From the IMG/VR virus record IMGVR_UViG_2645727901_000003, positions 1 through 38,370 of that record: DNA of 38,370 nt, one strand, 5' to 3'. This DNA is from a virus (lineage: Duplodnaviria; Heunggongvirae; Uroviricota; Caudoviricetes). A program made the position numbers and the translations under genes. The notes beneath the pieces are model-generated. The model searched no databases. It was not told where the DNA came from and saw only the letters and a program-made list of their open reading frames with translations. Shown piece after piece: positions 1-7,863 of this stretch (positions are counted from its first letter, which is position 1; every line of letters starts with the position of its first letter).

Positions 1-113
1 CGGAAGTCGCTGTCGTTCTCAAAATCGGTGGAGCTGCATGACAAAGTCATCGGGCATTATCTGAACATAAAACACTATCAATAAGTTGGAGTCATTACCC
101 ATTCTGCGTTTCC

Positions 114-908
114 TCACCAAATTCGCTTCGGGCTTGGTGTATTCTCTCCAGCTAACGCTTTTTCATCAGCGGCTATCTGTTGTGATTCTTTATCTGCCTG
201 AGCCTGTGCCAGTGTTGCTGCAGCGTTTTGCTGGGCTACCAGGAGCGAGCGGATTTGCAGCAGCTGGTTCGTTTGAGCACTTGCAAGCTGGTTAGCGGCC
301 TGAATAGCTTCCATTTGCCCTTGTGCGCCGGTTGCCTGAGTTTGCAAATCTGCCAGGTTATCAGCATCGCTTTGCAGTGTTTCTTGCTGTTCATCAAGAG
401 CCTTAAAAACGGCGTCATTGGCCTTTTTACGCGCCTCAGAGCTGTTCTGTTCTGCTTTACGCAGTGCGCTGATTTCATCTGCAGTACATTCAACATTACT
501 GTTAAAGCACGGTGATGAGCGGTAGTAATTCACGTCCTGATAACGTTTCAGATATGAATCAAGACTCCCGGCCTGATTTTTGTAGTAATTAAGAGTGTCC
601 TGCGCCTGCAACAATTTGTTGATGGTTGAATTGGCCTGATCCCAGATATAGGCCGCAGGTGCGACGGTATTTTTGAGCATGTTTTCATACTGCTGCAGCT
701 GCGTCTGGTACTGCTGGATCTGTTTAGTCACAGCCTGAACGTTGTTAACTGCGCTGATTGTGGTCTGAACCACATTAGTGCCATCAATAACGGGAATTCC
801 GGCCTTAACCGGTAATGCCATGACGGACGCCACGAAAGGAACTATTAAAGCTTTTTTAGCGGCTAAAATCCCTCTTTGTAATGAAACCACTCGGAACATT
901 AAATTCAT
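114..908 (-). CDS. trbJ: P-type conjugative transfer protein TrbJ-like (VirB5 family)
   Basis: 264 aa; N-terminal signal-like segment then AGIPVIDGTN, YQDVNYYRSSPC and ANQLASAQTNQLLQIRSLLVAQQNA motifs recalled from RP4 TrbJ; ATG at 908 with GAGGTGA Shine-Dalgarno. Confidence 0.7.
   Translation of the reverse strand: MNLMFRVVSLQRGILAAKKALIVPFVASVMALPVKAGIPVIDGTNVVQTTISAVNNVQAVTKQIQQYQTQLQQYENMLKNTVAPAAYIWDQANSTINKLLQAQDTLNYYKNQAGSLDSYLKRYQDVNYYRSSPCFNSNVECTADEISALRKAEQNSSEARKKANDAVFKALDEQQETLQSDADNLADLQTQATGAQGQMEAIQAANQLASAQTNQLLQIRSLLVAQQNAAATLAQAQADKESQQIAADEKALAGENTPSPKRIW
855..867. promoter_or_regulatory. KorB operator (OB)-like palindrome TTTAGCGGCTAAA
   Basis: Exact match to the IncP-1 OB consensus TTTAGC(G/C)GCTAAA; lies in the 5' end of the trbJ-like ORF. 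Confidence 0.55.
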
Positions 909-989
909 TTGCTCACCTCTTTTTCATCAGTTCAGTAATATTTAACACACTGTCTTTTAACAGACGCAGGTATATAGGAAACCACACAT

Positions 990-1343
990 TTATTTATCCA
1001 AGATTTTATCCATAATGTTCCTTAGTTCTTGCCGAGTTGATTCTATTTTCGCAAGCAAGGTTCTTATCAGGGTGGGTGAAAAATCAACTGTTCGAGGATC
1101 ATTTGCGAGCCATAATTTAAGTAATCCGCCAAGTCTTCCAAGATCAGCGTTTACTCGGCTAAGTTCATTAACCTGTTTTATATCTACGATAGAATCAACC
1201 TGATAACCCATTGCAACTCTACGAACAAAACAGGCAACACTTAATCCAGATGCTTCTGCATTTTCTTGGATGAGAATTTTTTCTTCGGGTAAACAATAAA
1301 CTTTTATTGGCGTACTATTTTTTCTAGTCTGAGTAACTTTCAT
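990..1343 (-). CDS. Putative mobilization/relaxosome accessory protein (MobC-like)
   Basis: 117 aa from ATG at 1343 with GGAGAG Shine-Dalgarno (ORF track extends to 1430); LxRxxxxLxxLxxxL pattern reminiscent of MobC; sits beside the oriT/oriV-like intergenic region. Confidence 0.4.
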   Translation of the reverse strand: MKVTQTRKNSTPIKVYCLPEEKILIQENAEASGLSVACFVRRVAMGYQVDSIVDIKQVNELSRVNADLGRLGGLLKLWLANDPRTVDFSPTLIRTLLAKIESTRQELRNIMDKILDK

Positions 1344-1734
1344 ATAGCTCTCCATACAGGCGGTAGCCTGGCAGAGCAGGACGCCCTTGAGCCGCGATGC
1401 GGCGAATAGGGAGTGGTAAAGTTGGAACACCGTAGCGGTGGGCCTACTTTACATGTCCTGCCCTCCTGTTGCCGTAGTATATCTGTGCACATCAATGTGT
1501 ATTTCAGTGTACAGGATGTGTTTTCTTAGCGTATTAATATAGGATTACTCGGGTAAAGATCTGCAGCAAATGTGTTTCTTGCAAGGAAACTATATTTCTC
1601 CCTTTTGAAAATGACCTTTAGTAGTTATAAATGGGCGTCCACCAACTGTATTTATGTTTCGATATATTGTAAGAAATATTTTATTTTCTCATGCACTTTT
1701 TTACTTACATTGTCAAAGCATGTGCATTGCAGAT

Positions 1735-1747
1735 TTTAGCGGCTAAA
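1735..1747. promoter_or_regulatory. KorB operator (OB)-like palindrome TTTAGCGGCTAAA
   Basis: Exact OB consensus, next to an AT-rich stretch (about 1600..1730) in the origin-like intergenic region. Confidence 0.6.
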
Positions 1748-1960
1748 ATCTTCCTCCCTATGCCTAAAGCTAGGGGCGTACCTCATATGTCATAAAACCT
1801 ACCTCAAGTGTCAATATACCAAACGAGTAAGTAATCTCTTCTTCTGGCGTACAACCATCGGCCTTTGGCCGATTCTAGATTTGAAAGCGCCTGCTCAGGC
1901 AGGTGATTTCAAAGACTGTAGATCCTGAACGATCCTGTAAATACTGCTGAATAGTAAAAA

Positions 1961-2044
1961 ATCGGGCCGCTGTAGCACGCTACCGGGCCGCTATAACACG
2001 CTATCGGGCCGTTGTGACACAATATCGGGCCGTTGTGACACGTT
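1961..2044. repeat. Four tandem 21-bp iterons (putative oriV)
   Basis: ATCGGGCCGCTGTAGCACGCT / ACCGGGCCGCTATAACACGCT / ATCGGGCCGTTGTGACACAAT / ATCGGGCCGTTGTGACACGTT in head-to-tail array; followed by TTATCCTAG (DnaA-box-like). Confidence 0.75.
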
Positions 2045-2795
2045 TTATCCTAGAACCGTTCAAATCAATTCCAATTTCCAGCAATTGCACGGAATCTTCT
2101 TTCAATCTCCGACGATAGTTACGTAAAGTCATATTACTCGTTCCTTCACCGCATACTGCTAATATCAACGTATCCATATACCACCCTCCTAAAGGATTAT
2201 TACTATGGGTTAAGACATGACGAGCGACTGCCTGGCTAATACCATGTTGTAGCCGAGCTATGGGGCCAGGATGATAATAAAATGGCAAATCTTTTTTGAG
2301 TAACATCGCTAATGCAACACCCAGACGGACACGCCATAAACGGCGTTCTCCCCCAGTCAAAGGATCTGGACGCGTCATAGGTGATGGCACTACATGATCG
2401 ATCAGTCCCCCTATTATACAGTCGCCGCTTTTCTCCAGCTCTGGCGTTATAATTTCAACTGTTGCGACGCGCAGATCTAAAAGCAATTTCTGTATACGAC
2501 CATAACTGTATTGTGCATCGGATAGCGTTCGGCGTACTTTCGCTGGATCTACTAATAATTCGATTCCACCATCAGAAATTTCACGACGTTGCTCGGCAAC
2601 ATATAATATTGTCTCTACGATATCGGCATGACGCTGTCCGAGCCGTCCGGTAACACGACAACGACCAAAACTAGTCTCCATCCATTGTCCCTTCACCTCC
2701 TTAGGACGCTGGCTTGGCTGGTACAGAATTACTCGGGCTTGCCAAGCTGTACTTGTGGGTGCCACTTTATTACCAGTTGTCATTGTCAGCGCCAC
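2001..2795 (-). CDS. Putative iteron-binding replication initiator (IncQ RepC-like)
   Basis: 264 aa; C-terminal segment GGWYMDTLILAVCGEGTSNMTLRNYRRRL resembles recalled RSF1010 RepC; iterons directly at its 3' end; overlaps helicase gene end. Confidence 0.45.
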   Translation of the reverse strand: MALTMTTGNKVAPTSTAWQARVILYQPSQRPKEVKGQWMETSFGRCRVTGRLGQRHADIVETILYVAEQRREISDGGIELLVDPAKVRRTLSDAQYSYGRIQKLLLDLRVATVEIITPELEKSGDCIIGGLIDHVVPSPMTRPDPLTGGERRLWRVRLGVALAMLLKKDLPFYYHPGPIARLQHGISQAVARHVLTHSNNPLGGWYMDTLILAVCGEGTSNMTLRNYRRRLKEDSVQLLEIGIDLNGSRIKRVTTARYCVTTAR

Positions 2796-3627
2796 TCCAG
2801 GTAGATGTTCTTTCTTTAGTAAGCTTTTTATTATTCTTCGAGCTGAGCGCCGTTATTTTTAATACTCCCCCCTCATGTCTCTGTAACCAACGATCTGGCG
2901 CACGTTCTCCATAATTTACTTTATTTATTCCAAATCTAACAAATTGACCTCGAACATCATCAGAAATACCATACGTCTTCGCTTCCAAGGCGGTCATGCC
3001 CGCCAGATAAGATTGCCACCGTATATTATCAACCAGGACGCTACTACCCCTGCTTGCCTGCTGTATATCACCAACCCCCATCGTGGCAGCGCCTTTGTTT
3101 GAATGGTGTAGAAATATAATCGAACATCCAGTATCAGCAGCAATACCTTCTAGCTTTCCAATGACTTTGGACATTGCTGCGCTATTATTCTCATCCTCCT
3201 GGTGGAAACGGCGAAGAGTATCCAAAATTATTAAACGTCTACCTTTTGAAACTTCATTGATCAAGTTGCTCCAATCCGGCAAGAAAATATTTGGACACTT
3301 CCCTACCAAAGGTTCGACCAGTAGCTTATCAGCTACAATCTGCTGCTGACGTGCTGTTAGATATTTTCCCAACGCATATAAACGATGGTGAACGATGGTT
3401 TCAGAGTCCTCCACAGGTAAATATGCCACCAACCCAGTCGGATATTCACCAAAGTTTAAAAGATCTACACCACAAGTAATCTGCACAGCCAATTGTAATG
3501 CCAGCATTGACTTTCCAGCGCCTCCCGGAGAAACAATCGCTCCGATAGTACCAATAGCCAAATTAGGCAAGACGTAATCAATTGGTTGTGGCTTAGCTTC
3601 AAATGCTTCCATTATGTTCAATGACAT
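2770..3627 (-). CDS. RepA-like replicative helicase (RecA-fold ATPase)
   Basis: 285 aa; Walker A SPGGAGKS, Walker B-like LIILD; ATG at 3627. Confidence 0.65.
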   Translation of the reverse strand: MSLNIMEAFEAKPQPIDYVLPNLAIGTIGAIVSPGGAGKSMLALQLAVQITCGVDLLNFGEYPTGLVAYLPVEDSETIVHHRLYALGKYLTARQQQIVADKLLVEPLVGKCPNIFLPDWSNLINEVSKGRRLIILDTLRRFHQEDENNSAAMSKVIGKLEGIAADTGCSIIFLHHSNKGAATMGVGDIQQASRGSSVLVDNIRWQSYLAGMTALEAKTYGISDDVRGQFVRFGINKVNYGERAPDRWLQRHEGGVLKITALSSKNNKKLTKERTSTWSGADNDNW

Positions 3628-3632
3628 TGCTG

Positions 3633-3863
3633 TTACCTACCTAAAACAACACCGGGTCTGGCCGCTTTAAACATTGCTGATTTACGATCCGCAATCCACT
3701 GTTCCACTTCGGATAACTGCCATGCAACATTTCGACTAGTAAGTGCTATACGGCGAGGAAACTCGCCTCGCTGTTCAAGGTTATAAATAGTGCGGGCTGA
3801 CAATGGGATCATTTCCAGAAGTGTTTTTCTGTTAATGAGCGTGCTATGTGCCTTTGTTTGCAT
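3633..3863 (-). CDS. alpA: AlpA-family HTH regulator (prophage CP4-57-type / excisionase-like)
   Basis: LSARTIYNLEQRGEFPRRIAL...WQLSEVEQWIADR matches AlpA HTH pattern; ATG at 3863 with perfect AGGAGG (ORF track start at 3884 is a TTG codon). Confidence 0.7.
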   Translation of the reverse strand: MQTKAHSTLINRKTLLEMIPLSARTIYNLEQRGEFPRRIALTSRNVAWQLSEVEQWIADRKSAMFKAARPGVVLGR

Positions 3864-3940
3864 CTGCCTTCCTCCTGTTTCCAATCAGGCCTATACAATG
3901 CCAAGCATTACCACTTGCTAAAACCTATTCATTGGCTAAA

Positions 3941-4912
3941 ATGGTTGACATGAAAATTACTATCTGGGAAGGCTGTGACCTCACAGTTGCAGCTGCAATT
4001 AAATTATTTGTAGAGCGTAGTTATCCGTACTCCATATTTTCACGGAGGTATCCAATACTGCGTCTCATACAGGAAGTTATTGATCCAGCAGTAGCTGCTT
4101 ATGTAAATTCCCTGCCACCAAGTCATAAAGACTACATTTCTGGAGTAAATCTAGGATTTAGTGATGTACTTAAAAAAGTGGGCTTAAACGTCGTAGTACA
4201 GGCACAAAGACTTCTTTTGCGTAATTTCGTTCTGACTTTAGATCAACAAACTTCTCTTGATAAATGCTTTACCGCTACGATTGAGTCTCTTATTGAATTA
4301 GTCAGTGAGTGCGCATCCAAGCGGCCGAAGAAATCCTCTCCTGCAAAAGGAGTAACTATAAATTCACAGCGTAAGCTCGGTTATTGCGAGTTCTGCGGTA
4401 ATCTAACCGAATTTTCCAAGTTGATCAGTGAGATATCAGAATTTGTTGCTAACGATAATGAGTTCCCCGTTCATGAAAAACAGGTCCTTAGTCATCGATA
4501 TTGTTCTGACCATAGGCCCAAACTCACCAATGGTCTATGGAATCCCAAATACAGACAAGGAAAGCGGTCTCTCGAACAGTTCAATAAAGAATTAATAAGG
4601 CTTAGACGGCAATGCGCTAAACCGCATAAAGCTAACGCAAACACAGGGGATATATTGATTGATACCTATTTTCATGAGTGGATGCAGGGTCAAACTTTAA
4701 CCCCAGCAGATCTAGATAAACTTAGGAATATTGCCAGACGAATGGTTGACTCCAAATTCACTGATACTAAGAAAAAAATAATCATATTAAAACACCAAGG
4801 TTTTAACCAGTTTGAAACCGCACAGGTTTTAGAAAAAAATCACTACACAACTATGACAAAGCAGGCTGTGTCCAAGGCCTTAGCGTCTGTGAGGAAAGAA
4901 TTTTATATTTAA
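3941..4912 (+). CDS. Hypothetical cargo protein with Cys-containing central region and C-terminal HTH-like segment
   Basis: AT-rich ORF; GYCEFCGN...YCSDH; C-terminal FETAQVLEKNHYTTMTKQAVSKALASVRK helix-turn-helix-like; start uncertain (ATG 3941 or GTG 3848). Confidence 0.4.
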   Translation: MVDMKITIWEGCDLTVAAAIKLFVERSYPYSIFSRRYPILRLIQEVIDPAVAAYVNSLPPSHKDYISGVNLGFSDVLKKVGLNVVVQAQRLLLRNFVLTLDQQTSLDKCFTATIESLIELVSECASKRPKKSSPAKGVTINSQRKLGYCEFCGNLTEFSKLISEISEFVANDNEFPVHEKQVLSHRYCSDHRPKLTNGLWNPKYRQGKRSLEQFNKELIRLRRQCAKPHKANANTGDILIDTYFHEWMQGQTLTPADLDKLRNIARRMVDSKFTDTKKKIIILKHQGFNQFETAQVLEKNHYTTMTKQAVSKALASVRKEFYI

Positions 4913-5337
4913 AATAGTATATCCACGAGCTATTATGGTGGCAGTTTAAGTCTTAATATCATCCACTTTATTGAATTATAACCAGCCACTTACGAGGGTT
5001 TTTCGCGATTACCCTGCTTCAAATTGATGATTTTGAAAATACAGTATTATAGTTTATTGTTTGTAGCGCAGCTGTAAGCGTTATGCAAAACGGATCACAG
5101 TGATACTACCTCACCAGTAAATCACTGAAGCCGATCTGTAATGACATAGAACGAATTGGTTTTATGGTTATGCAATGGCTCATCCCCTTACTTGTCCCTG
5201 ACCATAAAAAGCATTCGCTTTCCTGAAAGCAAGTCTAAGCCAAGGGGCGTTTACAGTTGTCTTCTCTTGGCTCATTAGGTACTGGCTTAATTATTAGAAT
5301 CATGTCGGTGGCATTTAAGTCCAAATATGCCCAAACT

Positions 5338-5350
5338 TTTAGCAGCTAAA
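5338..5350. promoter_or_regulatory. KorB operator-like palindrome, centre variant TTTAGCAGCTAAA
   Basis: Perfect 13-bp palindrome differing from OB consensus only at the central base. Confidence 0.45.
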
Positions 5351-5489
5351 ATTCGTCTTCTCATGTAGGGTCAAGAAGCTTATGACTTAACCTATTGATT
5401 ATGTGAATTACCTTGTGAGTATTACTCGTAGGATGGAATCTTCCAAAACTCTGACAATTCACTCTGAATGCATGGTAACAAAGAACAGT

Positions 5490-6119
5490 TTAAACCATGG
5501 TCTGTTCAGCGTTAAATTTCTCAAGATAGACTTCCATTTCGCGAGTCCACCTAGGGGTAGGTACCGAGGTGATCATTAGCCAAGGAAACCACCATACAAG
5601 CATGAAGAGTAACATAAGCGGTGCGATCATTTCGGCCGAAGAATGAGAAACTATATACATAATGAATAAGATTAGTAGAACTGTGTTTACAATCTGACCT
5701 ACCAGAAAAAGACGCCAGCGAAAACAATGCCATTTCCTGTTGAACACAATCCGTCCATCCCGTTCTTCGAGCCAGTTACGCCACGGCTTGAGATAACCAG
5801 CCCGCAACCCATAACGATCACACATTATTACAGCCAAATCCTGCAGCCGATAATTATACAAGCCTGTGAGCCGATAAAGGCTGCGCTGACGAAGCTCACG
5901 CTTTGCCAGACGGACCGCATTTTTATTCAAATATGGCTGTGTCAGCATTTGCTCTAGCCGGCGCTTCCTAAGATTGAGTAGTCCACGAAATACACTTCCA
6001 GATTCAGCATTAATTACTCTGTGACGAACTACACCGAGTGCAATATAGATACACAGCAATAGCCAGCCGGTCTTAGGGTATTGATTCATCCATTGTATAA
6101 TTACAGACAACTCAGGCAC
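5490..6119 (-). CDS. Hypothetical membrane protein (cargo)
   Basis: 209 aa; hydrophobic N-terminal segment and two C-terminal TM-like segments flanking a basic soluble region; AT-rich; GTG start with AAAGGA Shine-Dalgarno (alternative ATG at 6089). Confidence 0.45.
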   Translation of the reverse strand: MPELSVIIQWMNQYPKTGWLLLCIYIALGVVRHRVINAESGSVFRGLLNLRKRRLEQMLTQPYLNKNAVRLAKRELRQRSLYRLTGLYNYRLQDLAVIMCDRYGLRAGYLKPWRNWLEERDGRIVFNRKWHCFRWRLFLVGQIVNTVLLILFIMYIVSHSSAEMIAPLMLLFMLVWWFPWLMITSVPTPRWTREMEVYLEKFNAEQTMV

Positions 6120-6173
6120 TTTTATTTTTCCTTTTTATGCAATCCAGATAAAACCAGTAAAGATTCAGTAAAT

Positions 6174-6186
6174 TTTAGCGGCTAAA
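6174..6186. promoter_or_regulatory. KorB operator (OB)-like palindrome TTTAGCGGCTAAA
   Basis: Exact OB consensus about 55 bp upstream of the membrane-protein gene start. Confidence 0.6.
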
Positions 6187-6242
6187 ATTGCTCTCCTGGC
6201 GTAGATAAAAGAAGTATATCCACTTAAATCACTGATTATTAA

Positions 6243-7433
6243 CTACTTACTAGTCCATTCATCAATCATATTCGCCCAATCTTGTAGCATCTCGGCCCTC
6301 TGCTCACGATATTCAGCCTTGTTATAAACAGCTCGTACCCCCTTTTGTTCATGGGCAAGGCACTTCTCAATCCAGTCAGTATTGTACCCGGCCTCATGTA
6401 GCAAGGTGCTGGCAGTACGCCGTAAGTCATGGGGACCAAACTTAGGTAACAAGTCCCCTTCTTTCTGAGCCAGACGATACGTCAGTGTCAAAACCCGGTT
6501 TAAAGTAGCGCTACTCATTGGCGCATCGGAATCGTACCGCGAAGGAAGGATAAAATCAGAGCTACCGGCAAAGGTTTTGAGAGCAATCATAATATCCATT
6601 GCCTGTCTGGAAAGAAAAACCAAATGTGGATTACGTCGTTTCATCCTCTCCTTTGGTATCGTCCATAATGCCTCACTAAAATTGATCTCGTTCCAGGTTG
6701 CGTTAGTAAGCTCACTTTTACGTACCATCGTTAACAGCAAAAGTTTAACCGCTGCTCTGATTGATGGCGTCGTTCCTACCCGTTCCATGTACCGATACAT
6801 CAGACCAATTTCAACTGGCGTCAATGCCCTGTCACGAGGCTCAAATTTCGCTATGCTTGCAGGCCGTACCAGATCAGCGGGATTCTCAACCTTCTGACCG
6901 CGCTCAATAGCCCAGCGATAGACTTGCAATACAATCTCTCTGGCGTGCACAGCTGTCGCCGGTGCCCCTCTCTCGACAATGTTATCGGTTAATGCGCGTA
7001 AGTCTTCATGTGTAATCTCGGTCAATTTCTGCTGCGCAAATTTTGACTTCAACTCCCTTTGATATACCGAACGCCGCATATCACGCGTCGATTCAGCCAT
7101 TTGATAACCGCGTAACCATTTCTCAGCCCATGCACCAAAAGTCTCCGCATCTTTGATACGAGCTTTATCTCTAGCTTTTTCCCTCGCTGGCGATCTTCCA
7201 CTGGCAACCATTTTTTTAGCTTCATGGAGCCGTTCACGCGCTTCTGCAAGCGTGATCCCTCCAACACCATAGCGGCCAAAAGTAACGGTCTCCTGTCTTC
7301 CGTTTATTGAATAGTTATAACGAAATGAAATAGTTCCAGCCGGAGTGACCGCAACATACAGACCATCACGGTCATTAACTTTATAGAGTTTCTCCTTCGG
7401 CTTAAGGTGACGCAGCCTGGTGTCAGTCAACAT
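6243..7433 (-). CDS. int: Tyrosine site-specific integrase (P4-type phage integrase family)
   Basis: 396 aa; N-terminal arm-binding-type domain (LYKVNDRDGLYVAVTPAGTISFRY), catalytic box HDLRRTASTLL and LAHEQKGVRAVYNKAEY. Confidence 0.85.
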   Translation of the reverse strand: MLTDTRLRHLKPKEKLYKVNDRDGLYVAVTPAGTISFRYNYSINGRQETVTFGRYGVGGITLAEARERLHEAKKMVASGRSPAREKARDKARIKDAETFGAWAEKWLRGYQMAESTRDMRRSVYQRELKSKFAQQKLTEITHEDLRALTDNIVERGAPATAVHAREIVLQVYRWAIERGQKVENPADLVRPASIAKFEPRDRALTPVEIGLMYRYMERVGTTPSIRAAVKLLLLTMVRKSELTNATWNEINFSEALWTIPKERMKRRNPHLVFLSRQAMDIMIALKTFAGSSDFILPSRYDSDAPMSSATLNRVLTLTYRLAQKEGDLLPKFGPHDLRRTASTLLHEAGYNTDWIEKCLAHEQKGVRAVYNKAEYREQRAEMLQDWANMIDEWTSK

Positions 7434-7553
7434 GTTTTATTGTTTTCCTTTATCAAAAATACCATGTTGTAAAAAATTCAGAAAACTTGTTTAACTCTCT
7501 GTTTTTAATTGAGTTATAAAAAATAAATACCATAACTCAACCGAAATTTATCA

Positions 7554-7863
7554 CATGGTACTTTTTCAAACCTGAATTCGAAACCAGAGAGTACCATCAA
7601 AAATTCCATTGAAAAAACCGTGCTTCCCGTTGCTAACAGCTGCCAGAAAGTGCCAGATACAAAAACAAAAAAGCCCGCAGTTACGCGGGCTTAGAGGTAC
7701 TTTACTGCTTTTACGTGCAGGCTGTTGCCAGACGTTAAATCATTCCCACTCAATTATTTACGGACAACATAAGTAATTGACTGACAACAACTTTTAAAGA
7801 AACAAAATTTCCAATACCGTTTTATATACCGTCGCCGGAAATCAGTACCATGAAAAATGCCAT
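7554..7863. repeat. GTACCAT-containing direct and inverted repeats (candidate integrase arm sites / att region)
   Basis: AGTACCATCAAAAATTCCAT (7590..7609) vs AGTACCATGAAAAATGCCAT (7844..7863), 17/20 identical; inverted copy CATGGTACTTTTT (7554..7566). Confidence 0.4.
7663..7695 (-). terminator. Intrinsic terminator closing the prophage lysis operon
   Basis: GCCCGC-AGTTAC-GCGGGC hairpin followed on the minus strand by UUUUUUGUUUUUG. Confidence 0.7.

Follow-up and report, generated by a model that had tools for sequence, protein, structure and literature searches.

The virus record IMGVR_UViG_2645727901_000003 (Caudoviricetes; positions 1-38,370, a stretch of 38,370 nt that we call the window) opens with a module, positions 100-7755, which, judged by its gene set, size and integration site, is an IS1-truncated integrative mobilizable element of the PIME1 type inserted at guaA, and it is in this island that we found four copies of the 13-bp palindrome recognized in IncP-1 plasmids by KorB (the KorB operator, OB). 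An earlier model reading of these letters without database searches (the sequence-only reading) had spoken of an integrated module, and it can now be given a family. The PIME1 subfamily is characterized by int, alpA, luxR, an RSF1010-like RepA helicase, traJ, trbJ, a site at the 3' end of guaA and a length of ~22 kb (Perta et al., bioRxiv 10.64898/2026.01.12.698999). The window island has that site and each of those genes together with an IncP-like oriT, and its intact relatives have trbL and a defence-gene half as well; it differs from the published elements in being cut by IS1 after trbJ and in lying beside a prophage rather than beside guaA. The features of the island are collected in Table 1.

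Table 1. Positions in the window of the genes, operators and other features of the island.
Feature	Position	Strand	Remarks
IS1 right end	1..99		truncates the island immediately after trbJ
trbJ, VirB5-like type IV secretion system protein	114..908	-	Pfam/homology
OB1	855..867		exact TTTAGCGGCTAAA; inside the trbJ 5' end
traJ, NikA-like oriT-binding relaxosome accessory protein	990..1343	-	homology
IncP-type oriT/traJ leader	1345..1475	-	Rfam traJ-II at 1365-1463; nucleotide similarity to the RP4 oriT region
OB2	1735..1747		exact KorB operator; iterons (oriV side) on one side, oriT-traJ-trbJ unit on the other
Tandem TTGACACnTGAGGTAG-like motif, two copies	1778..1814	-	~30 bp upstream of OB2 in the traJ direction
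Iterons	1961..2042		21-bp unit x3.9; probable oriV downstream of the rep genes
Replication module	2001..3627	-	RepA helicase (AAA_25, 2770-3627) and ORF264 (2001-2795)
alpA, AlpA-family regulator/excisionase-type helix-turn-helix protein	3633..3884	-	Pfam/homology
luxR-type regulator, 323 aa	3941..4912	+	divergent from alpA; C-terminal GerE/sigma-4-like helix-turn-helix
Conserved non-coding segment	5044..5330		80-85% identical in variants whose luxR is only 40% identical
OB3	5338..5350		TTTAGCAGCTAAA; int-proximal edge of the conserved non-coding segment; left boundary of the ORF209 cassette
ORF209, cargo	5490..6119	-	bracketed by OB3 and OB4
OB4	6174..6186		exact KorB operator; right boundary of the ORF209 cassette
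Tyrosine integrase (int), specific for the guaA 3' end	6243..7433	-	87-99% identical across 80 loci
guaA 3' remnant	7741..7755	-	codons IEWE and stop; right end of the island

An exact search of the whole window placed TTTAGCGGCTAAA at 855-867, 1735-1747 and 6174-6186, the pattern TTTAGCSGCTAAA was matched exactly at the same three places, and a mismatch-tolerant search added the A-centred TTTAGCAGCTAAA at 5338-5350, whereas no fifth copy was found anywhere in the 38,370 bp with up to two mismatches permitted. The four positions given in the sequence-only reading were thereby all reproduced, as was its contention that four copies cannot be due to chance, with 0.00 expected in 100 dinucleotide-preserving shuffles of the window. 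Its proposal of a scan for the 13-mer likewise returned four sites, with the qualification that three of them conform exactly to the consensus TTTAGC(G/C)GCTAAA and the copy at 5338, with its non-canonical A centre, departs from it when strictly applied. The 7.7-kb island part contains all four OBs, and the 30-kb prophage part is free of them. They share the extended core T-TTTAGCNGCTAAA-AT, each therefore reading T-OB-A(T) with the 5' T and 3' A flanks that are favourable for KorB, and OB2 plus its flanks forms a 17-bp perfect palindrome. On the minus strand OB1 supplies, in frame, codons 14-18 (I-L-A-A-K) of the TrbJ signal peptide; OB4 separates int from ORF209, 56 bp past the stop codon of the former and 55 bp ahead of the start of the latter.

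The identity of the motif is well documented. The 13-bp OB consensus has been published within CGAGAATTTTAGCGGCTAAAAAGGGC (PMC5577506), KorB oligonucleotides with the "most favourable flanking bases" T and A read TTTTAGCGGCTAAAA (PMC5577506, PMC13584720) and GGGATATTTTAGCGGCTAAAAGGA is the OB DNA used in PMC13584720. KorB, a global repressor, is a CTP-dependent clamp of the ParB family; from OB, where it loads, it slides along the DNA, and it represses promoters, the more strongly with KorA or TrbA (PMC13584720). We scanned three plasmids for OB: RP4 (L003, CP152305), the IncP-1beta plasmid pA22732-IMP (L090) and the mcr-1 IncP-1 plasmid pHKSHmcr1_P2_p1 (L002). By motif count RP4 has 10 exact and two one-mismatch OBs, in agreement with the 12 KorB operator sites cited in the literature; pA22732-IMP has 11 exact and one with a single mismatch, and the mcr-1 plasmid 13 exact copies, nearly all with aT...At flanks like those of the window sites. 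Across these three plasmids, then, OB is invariant in the alpha, beta and mcr-1-type IncP-1 clades, and the published consensus together with the 12-13 copies per plasmid upholds the assignment of the 13-mer, already made in the sequence-only reading, to KorB of IncP-1.

One of the island copies has a direct counterpart in the plasmids. An OB in the first codons of trbJ is present in RP4 (26687), the IncP-1beta plasmid (10356), the mcr-1 plasmid (4828) and the element GIsul2 (L007, 14027), and in all of these, as in PIME1, it is read as L-A-A-K; a DNA-binding site inside trbJ apparently constrains the sequence of the TrbJ signal peptide. To judge from this shared context, OB1 is inherited along with trbJ. 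IncP-1 plasmids also bear an OB just after traJ, a copy that some PIMEs keep, and the surroundings of OB2, OB3 and OB4 showed no nucleotide similarity to the plasmids in blastn searches. By sequence, the four 13-mers are genuine IncP-1 KorB operators, and KorB is predicted to bind them. They resemble the operators of the RK2/RP4 regulon in the 13-bp palindrome itself, in the T/A flanks, in the presence of several dispersed copies and in the copy within the trbJ signal peptide. They differ in that the island has neither the genes korB, incC, korA and trbA nor KorA operators, in that the DNA around three of the four is not related to the plasmid backbone and in that one site is A-centred.

Are these sites maintained in related elements? 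We took the integrase as query and kept one genome per species, which gave 80 loci from Enterobacterales, Vibrio, Shewanella, Pseudomonas, Bordetella, Xanthomonas, Brucella and other hosts, with 756 kb of chromosomal flank and 633 kb on the element side. The element side holds 105 exact OBs versus none on the chromosomal side, and OBs with one mismatch number only 8. Among loci that bear luxR, 36 of 42 have OBs; in 33 of 42 an OB lies in the interval where int and luxR converge, often 5-45 bp from the stop codon of luxR (or luxR-alpA), and the OB at the start of trbJ is found in 35 of the 38 loci with that gene. An OB other than the trbJ copy occurs in 34/42 luxR-positive loci versus 1/13 of those that are luxR-negative and trbJ-positive. 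The int-proximal OB recurs in related elements, and across distant hosts the operators hold fixed positions relative to four genes, at the 3' ends of luxR and int, the start of trbJ and the end of traJ; none is present in the accessory half of the intact element.

Two diverged E. coli variants (L005 and L006) are particularly instructive, as both have a different replication initiator and a LuxR 40% identical to that of the window and each has exactly four exact OBs, at equivalent places, in flanks that do not align with those of the window. Similarly, in an alignment of the oriV-oriT interval of five elements, 18 columns over OB2 are invariant versus a mean column identity of 68%. Purifying selection evidently keeps the OBs exact, as we conclude from the retention of exact copies amid unrelated flanks in L005 and L006 and from the excess of exact over one-mismatch copies in the 80 loci.

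The gene for the protein that binds these sites is absent. The sequence-only reading had stated that no korB/parB gene is in the window, and tblastn (with KorB queries from two clades plus IncC, KorA and TrbA) and Pfam agree: we found no homologue of KorB, IncC, KorA or TrbA by tblastn in the window, in the intact 22-kb relative (L001) or in the 80 loci, and no ParB domain with Pfam in the unannotated proteins of the 22-kb element. The leftward extension that it had recommended for finding korB, incC and korA was made through that relative and came back empty. It had also held that the lack of any KorB homologue in the replicon would refute the regulon; we consider this refuter invalid, since KorB would have to act in trans from a helper plasmid and its absence in cis is what one expects. 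In short, the island carries the sites of its helper's ParB protein without a ParB gene, a case of helper-ParB site mimicry, and with no KorB in cis it follows that KorB must be supplied by the helper.

The remainder of the island has a mixed history. TrbJ is 92% identical in amino acids, and its gene 93% in nucleotides, to that of mcr-1 IncP-1 plasmids of E. coli/Enterobacter, and this homology extends no further than 868, where OB1 has its outer edge. For TraJ the identity to the counterpart in the mcr-1 plasmid is only 65% (54% to RP4), and for trbL only 56%. The disparity between trbJ and its neighbours indicates that trbJ by itself was recently exchanged between the lineages of island and plasmid. 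The trbL gene is present in the intact relative (99.7% identical) and is missing from the window because of the IS1 cut. The IS1 end adjoins the trbJ stop codon, the island here having lost, or been separated from, trbK, trbL and the defence-gene half, and several E. coli genomes have this IS1-trbJ junction in their annotation. The 99.7% identical copy in E. coli RM10042 adjoins guaA and continues leftward through a trbK-like gene, trbL, higA and defence genes to about 22 kb, and the left end of the intact relative's element is near yfgI. In the window, 7755 is followed not by guaA but by a prophage resembling the podoviruses epsilon15, TL-2011b and PAT1 (lysis, tail and head genes, terminase), and island and prophage appear to lie in tandem at one guaA attachment site.

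The oriT region scores 83.5 bits with Rfam traJ-II, a cis-regulatory RNA class, at 1365-1463 (minus strand) and is similar by blastn to the oriT regions of RP4 and the mcr-1 plasmid, as an IncP-like oriT should be; the traJ-II "RNA motif" may really be an oriT DNA signature. At the same place there are what we take to be an RP4-like inverted repeat and a nic-like GTCCTG/CCC. An IncP-like oriT has been reported in the PIME family and oriV has been placed downstream of repA (Perta et al.). The TTGACACnTGAGGTAG copies near OB2 have a 21-bp spacing and are conserved in the diverged variants, with a third copy at 5106-5121 (minus strand) in the non-coding segment; the pair is a candidate binding site for an island regulator (LuxR-type or AlpA) or part of a promoter. 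The start of alpA annotated in a near-identical relative is at about 3863. In the LuxR-type regulator C149, C152, C188 and H191 are invariant, a zinc-ribbon-like arrangement, as is the recognition helix RQAVSKAL of its helix-turn-helix; its N-terminal domain had no structural match and the structure search returned a generic helix-turn-helix only. The luxR start codon is abutted by a TAAAAT similar to a -10 element, an arrangement suggestive of a leaderless mRNA. Two GCTAAAA half-sites upstream of luxR (3917-3942) were considered as LuxR/KorB half-operators and rejected, as they are not conserved across 23 homologous regions; the pair resembles the -10 element abutting a leaderless start.

Between luxR and ORF209 there is a non-coding stretch of 577 bp, and the conserved segment within it has OBs on both sides in variant L005. 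This segment holds a conserved promoter-like ATGACA-16-TATGGT (5141-5168, plus strand) as well as a GGCAT...ATGCC hairpin extending into the T-tract of OB3. In some PIME1 variants it is possibly a small RNA antisense to ORF209 and int; a universal KorB-silenced small RNA was rejected, as only three variant types carry the segment. ORF209 matched no Pfam family. Relative to L005, which has a single OB at this place, 5362-6171 (ORF209) is an insertion bracketed by OB3 and OB4. The cargo of this int-regulator slot varies, with ORF209 in the window and an entry-exclusion lipoprotein of the EexN family in L006 (12758-12991), both bounded by KorB operators. Breakpoints at operator edges (868, 5361-5362 and 6171-6172) are such that operators may double as junctions of module exchange.

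A major question arising from these observations is what an island without KorB would gain from its operators. PIME1 excision is induced by the IncP-1 plasmids pB10 and pKJK5 and not by IncN, IncX or IncL/M plasmids, induction by IncP-1 helpers has been shown for two members of the family, and int, luxR and alpA are each essential for excision (Perta et al.). Those authors state that the helper-derived inducer and the cause of the lowered helper abundance are unknown, and the text of their preprint has no occurrence of KorB and no mention of its operators. That IncP-1 plasmids induce the family makes a link to KorB biologically coherent. The membership in a KorB-type regulon proposed in the sequence-only reading agrees with this and with the conserved sites; as a statement of function it goes further than they do, a role in partition or titration being possible too.

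It is solid that a co-resident IncP-1 plasmid supplies a protein whose cognate site occurs four times in the island core, and this suggests that the island detects or exploits its helper through KorB. KorB loading at the island copies, and every effect downstream of it, we infer from the DNA sequence. The explanation we favour, with a confidence slightly above even, is that the OBs are docking sites in trans for helper KorB that couple transcription of the island to the helper. When an IncP-1 helper is in the cell, its KorB would load at the island OBs and spread over the ~5.3-kb core, and, bound at the convergent interval between int and luxR, at the ORF209 cassette and both ahead of and inside the oriT-traJ-trbJKL unit, it would alter island transcription by repressing or insulating promoters and convergent read-through. 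The island would thus gain a read-out of helper presence that is valid across IncP-1 clades, and IncC-KorB partition and the titration of KorB from the helper would be added consequences once the island replicates. The main argument for a regulatory role is that OB positions are anchored to genes, an anchoring which a pure centromere does not need. Also, pB10 and pKJK5, of the beta and epsilon clades, induce the E. coli element and yet cannot mobilize it (Perta et al.), which fits a sensor aimed at the clade-invariant pair of KorB and OB.

Could KorB itself be the helper signal? We entertain this more specific proposal only tentatively: with KorB loaded at the OB between int and luxR(-alpA) and at the remaining OBs of the core, transcription would be relieved or re-routed, and as a result LuxR, AlpA and Int would be made and the island would excise. 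How binding might switch the island on is speculative; KorB could block convergent or antisense transcription between int and luxR or, alternatively, silence the conserved non-coding segment that is flanked by OBs in L005. If KorB is the signal, a helper would be sensed via a repressor instead of an activator, and the same sites would later give partition and KorB titration. For the transcriptional coupling that we favour there is a precedent in the IncP-9 plasmid NAH7, whose ParB-family protein acts on parS-like sites near transfer genes. NAH7 is comparable in that a plasmid ParB acts at inverted repeats upstream of transfer genes and perfect copies of the site have been reported near conjugation genes of chromosomes; it is different in that ParB and motif are others and in that NAH7 ParB activates, whereas KorB is known as a repressor.

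Several observations weigh against the coupling of island transcription to KorB. KorB is known only as a repressor, and induction through it would have to follow a double-negative or insulator logic. No dedicated repressor gene was found behind an OB in the minimal variant L005. In RK2, strong long-range repression by KorB requires partners such as KorA or TrbA, and in positions 1-7800 we found no KorA operator GTTTAGCTAAAC with up to two mismatches and no KorC operator; of these operators, only that of KorB was copied by the island. Predictions of sigma-70 promoters near the OBs are weak, and the arrangement of KorB regulon promoters, in which OB, promoter and KorA operator stand together, was not found in the island. 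A KorB-locking domain like that of KorA or TrbA was sought in the island proteins and rejected, as hhalign of the LuxR family with KorA/TrbA gave a probability of 0.5% and lenient tblastn with the C-terminal domain returned noise. OBs are missing altogether from six of the 42 luxR-positive loci, and in GIsul2-type relatives, which have no luxR, the trbJ copy is the sole one retained. The A centre of OB3 is absent from the three plasmids scanned, none of which has an A or T centre, as 8 of 105 OBs in the related elements do. Finally, the window copy is truncated by IS1 and may no longer be mobile.

The closest competitor, which we rank second and regard as possible though on the unlikely side, makes the OBs mainly stolen centromeres or decoys, by which the island, once excised and replicating, is segregated by the helper's IncC-KorB and KorB is titrated, with the helper destabilized or its genes derepressed. 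The model for this is SGI1, two parS-like sites of which bind the ParB of its IncC helper, stabilize SGI1 and expel the helper. Moreover, KorB is the IncP-1 ParB, OB sites are reported to act in partition, and pB10 abundance and colony size fall only if the island can excise and replicate to about 8 copies, a "potential incompatibility" (Perta et al.); four OBs on each of 8 copies would add substantially to the 12 of each helper copy. However, a centromere or decoy needs no fixed gene position, yet the OBs are gene-anchored across distant hosts, and GIsul2-type elements have one intragenic site only. The window island is like SGI1 as an integrative mobilizable element with sites for a DNA-binding protein of the helper that it does not itself encode, and in both systems excision and replication are set off by the helper, to which the replicating element is in turn harmful. 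It is unlike SGI1 in the helper family (IncP-1), the protein (KorB) and the motif, and in being known here from its sequence. A further difference is that SGI1 senses its helper through the activator AcaCD and uses parS separately. IncP-1, as far as we know, offers only repressors. Since KorB combines the roles of repressor and ParB, one motif could serve sensing and partition alike. Partition or titration is compatible with the regulatory role that we favour.

We think it improbable that the OBs are instead operators of the island's own LuxR-type regulator, possibly one that mimics KorB specificity to bind helper OBs as well, with KorB incidental. The co-occurrence of non-trbJ OBs with luxR, the frequent position of an OB abutting the luxR stop codon, as parS abuts parB, and the invariant recognition helix are what this would lead one to expect, but the sequence also works where the LuxR-type protein is missing, on plasmids and GIsul2-type elements, no OB is present in the alpA/luxR promoter region and the structure search points to nothing beyond a generic helix-turn-helix. 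That the sites are functionless relics inherited with IncP-1-derived DNA (trbJ, traJ) accounts for OB1 at the same trbJ codons as in plasmids and for the plasmid-like OB after traJ, but is already disfavoured, and hardly to be believed, as OB2, OB3 and OB4 lie in island-specific DNA without nucleotide similarity to the plasmids, the sites are exact where flanks have diverged past alignment and exact copies far outnumber those with one mismatch, the reverse of what neutral decay would give. Equally far-fetched is that the OBs serve chiefly as short identical linkers for module exchange between islands and plasmids, for although trbJ identity to the mcr-1 plasmid ends at OB1 and the ORF209 cassette is bracketed by OBs where L005 has one, an identity of 17 bp is little for RecA-dependent exchange, breakpoints also occur away from OBs (1557, 5044), and such exchange would be a by-product of conserved sites and no reason for their conservation.

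We conclude that the motif, the element family and the mimicry of helper sites are each already known, and that what appears to be new is the presence of KorB operators in such islands. The searchable literature held no tie of KorB operators to PIME, GIsul2 or IncP islands, although it covers older subscription work incompletely and an earlier mention is possible. IncP-1 plasmids are major broad-host-range carriers of resistance genes, and PIMEs, a family of about 1,000 islands that has been recognised only recently, use them as vehicles and bring along defence systems and resistance genes. Conserved KorB operators in elements without KorB offer a concrete answer to the two questions of what induces these islands and why helper abundance falls. 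If that answer is true, the sliding-clamp model of KorB would extend from the plasmid's own genes to cross-talk between mobile elements, and the number and position of OBs would be a sequence marker with which islands responsive to IncP-1 plasmids may be predicted.

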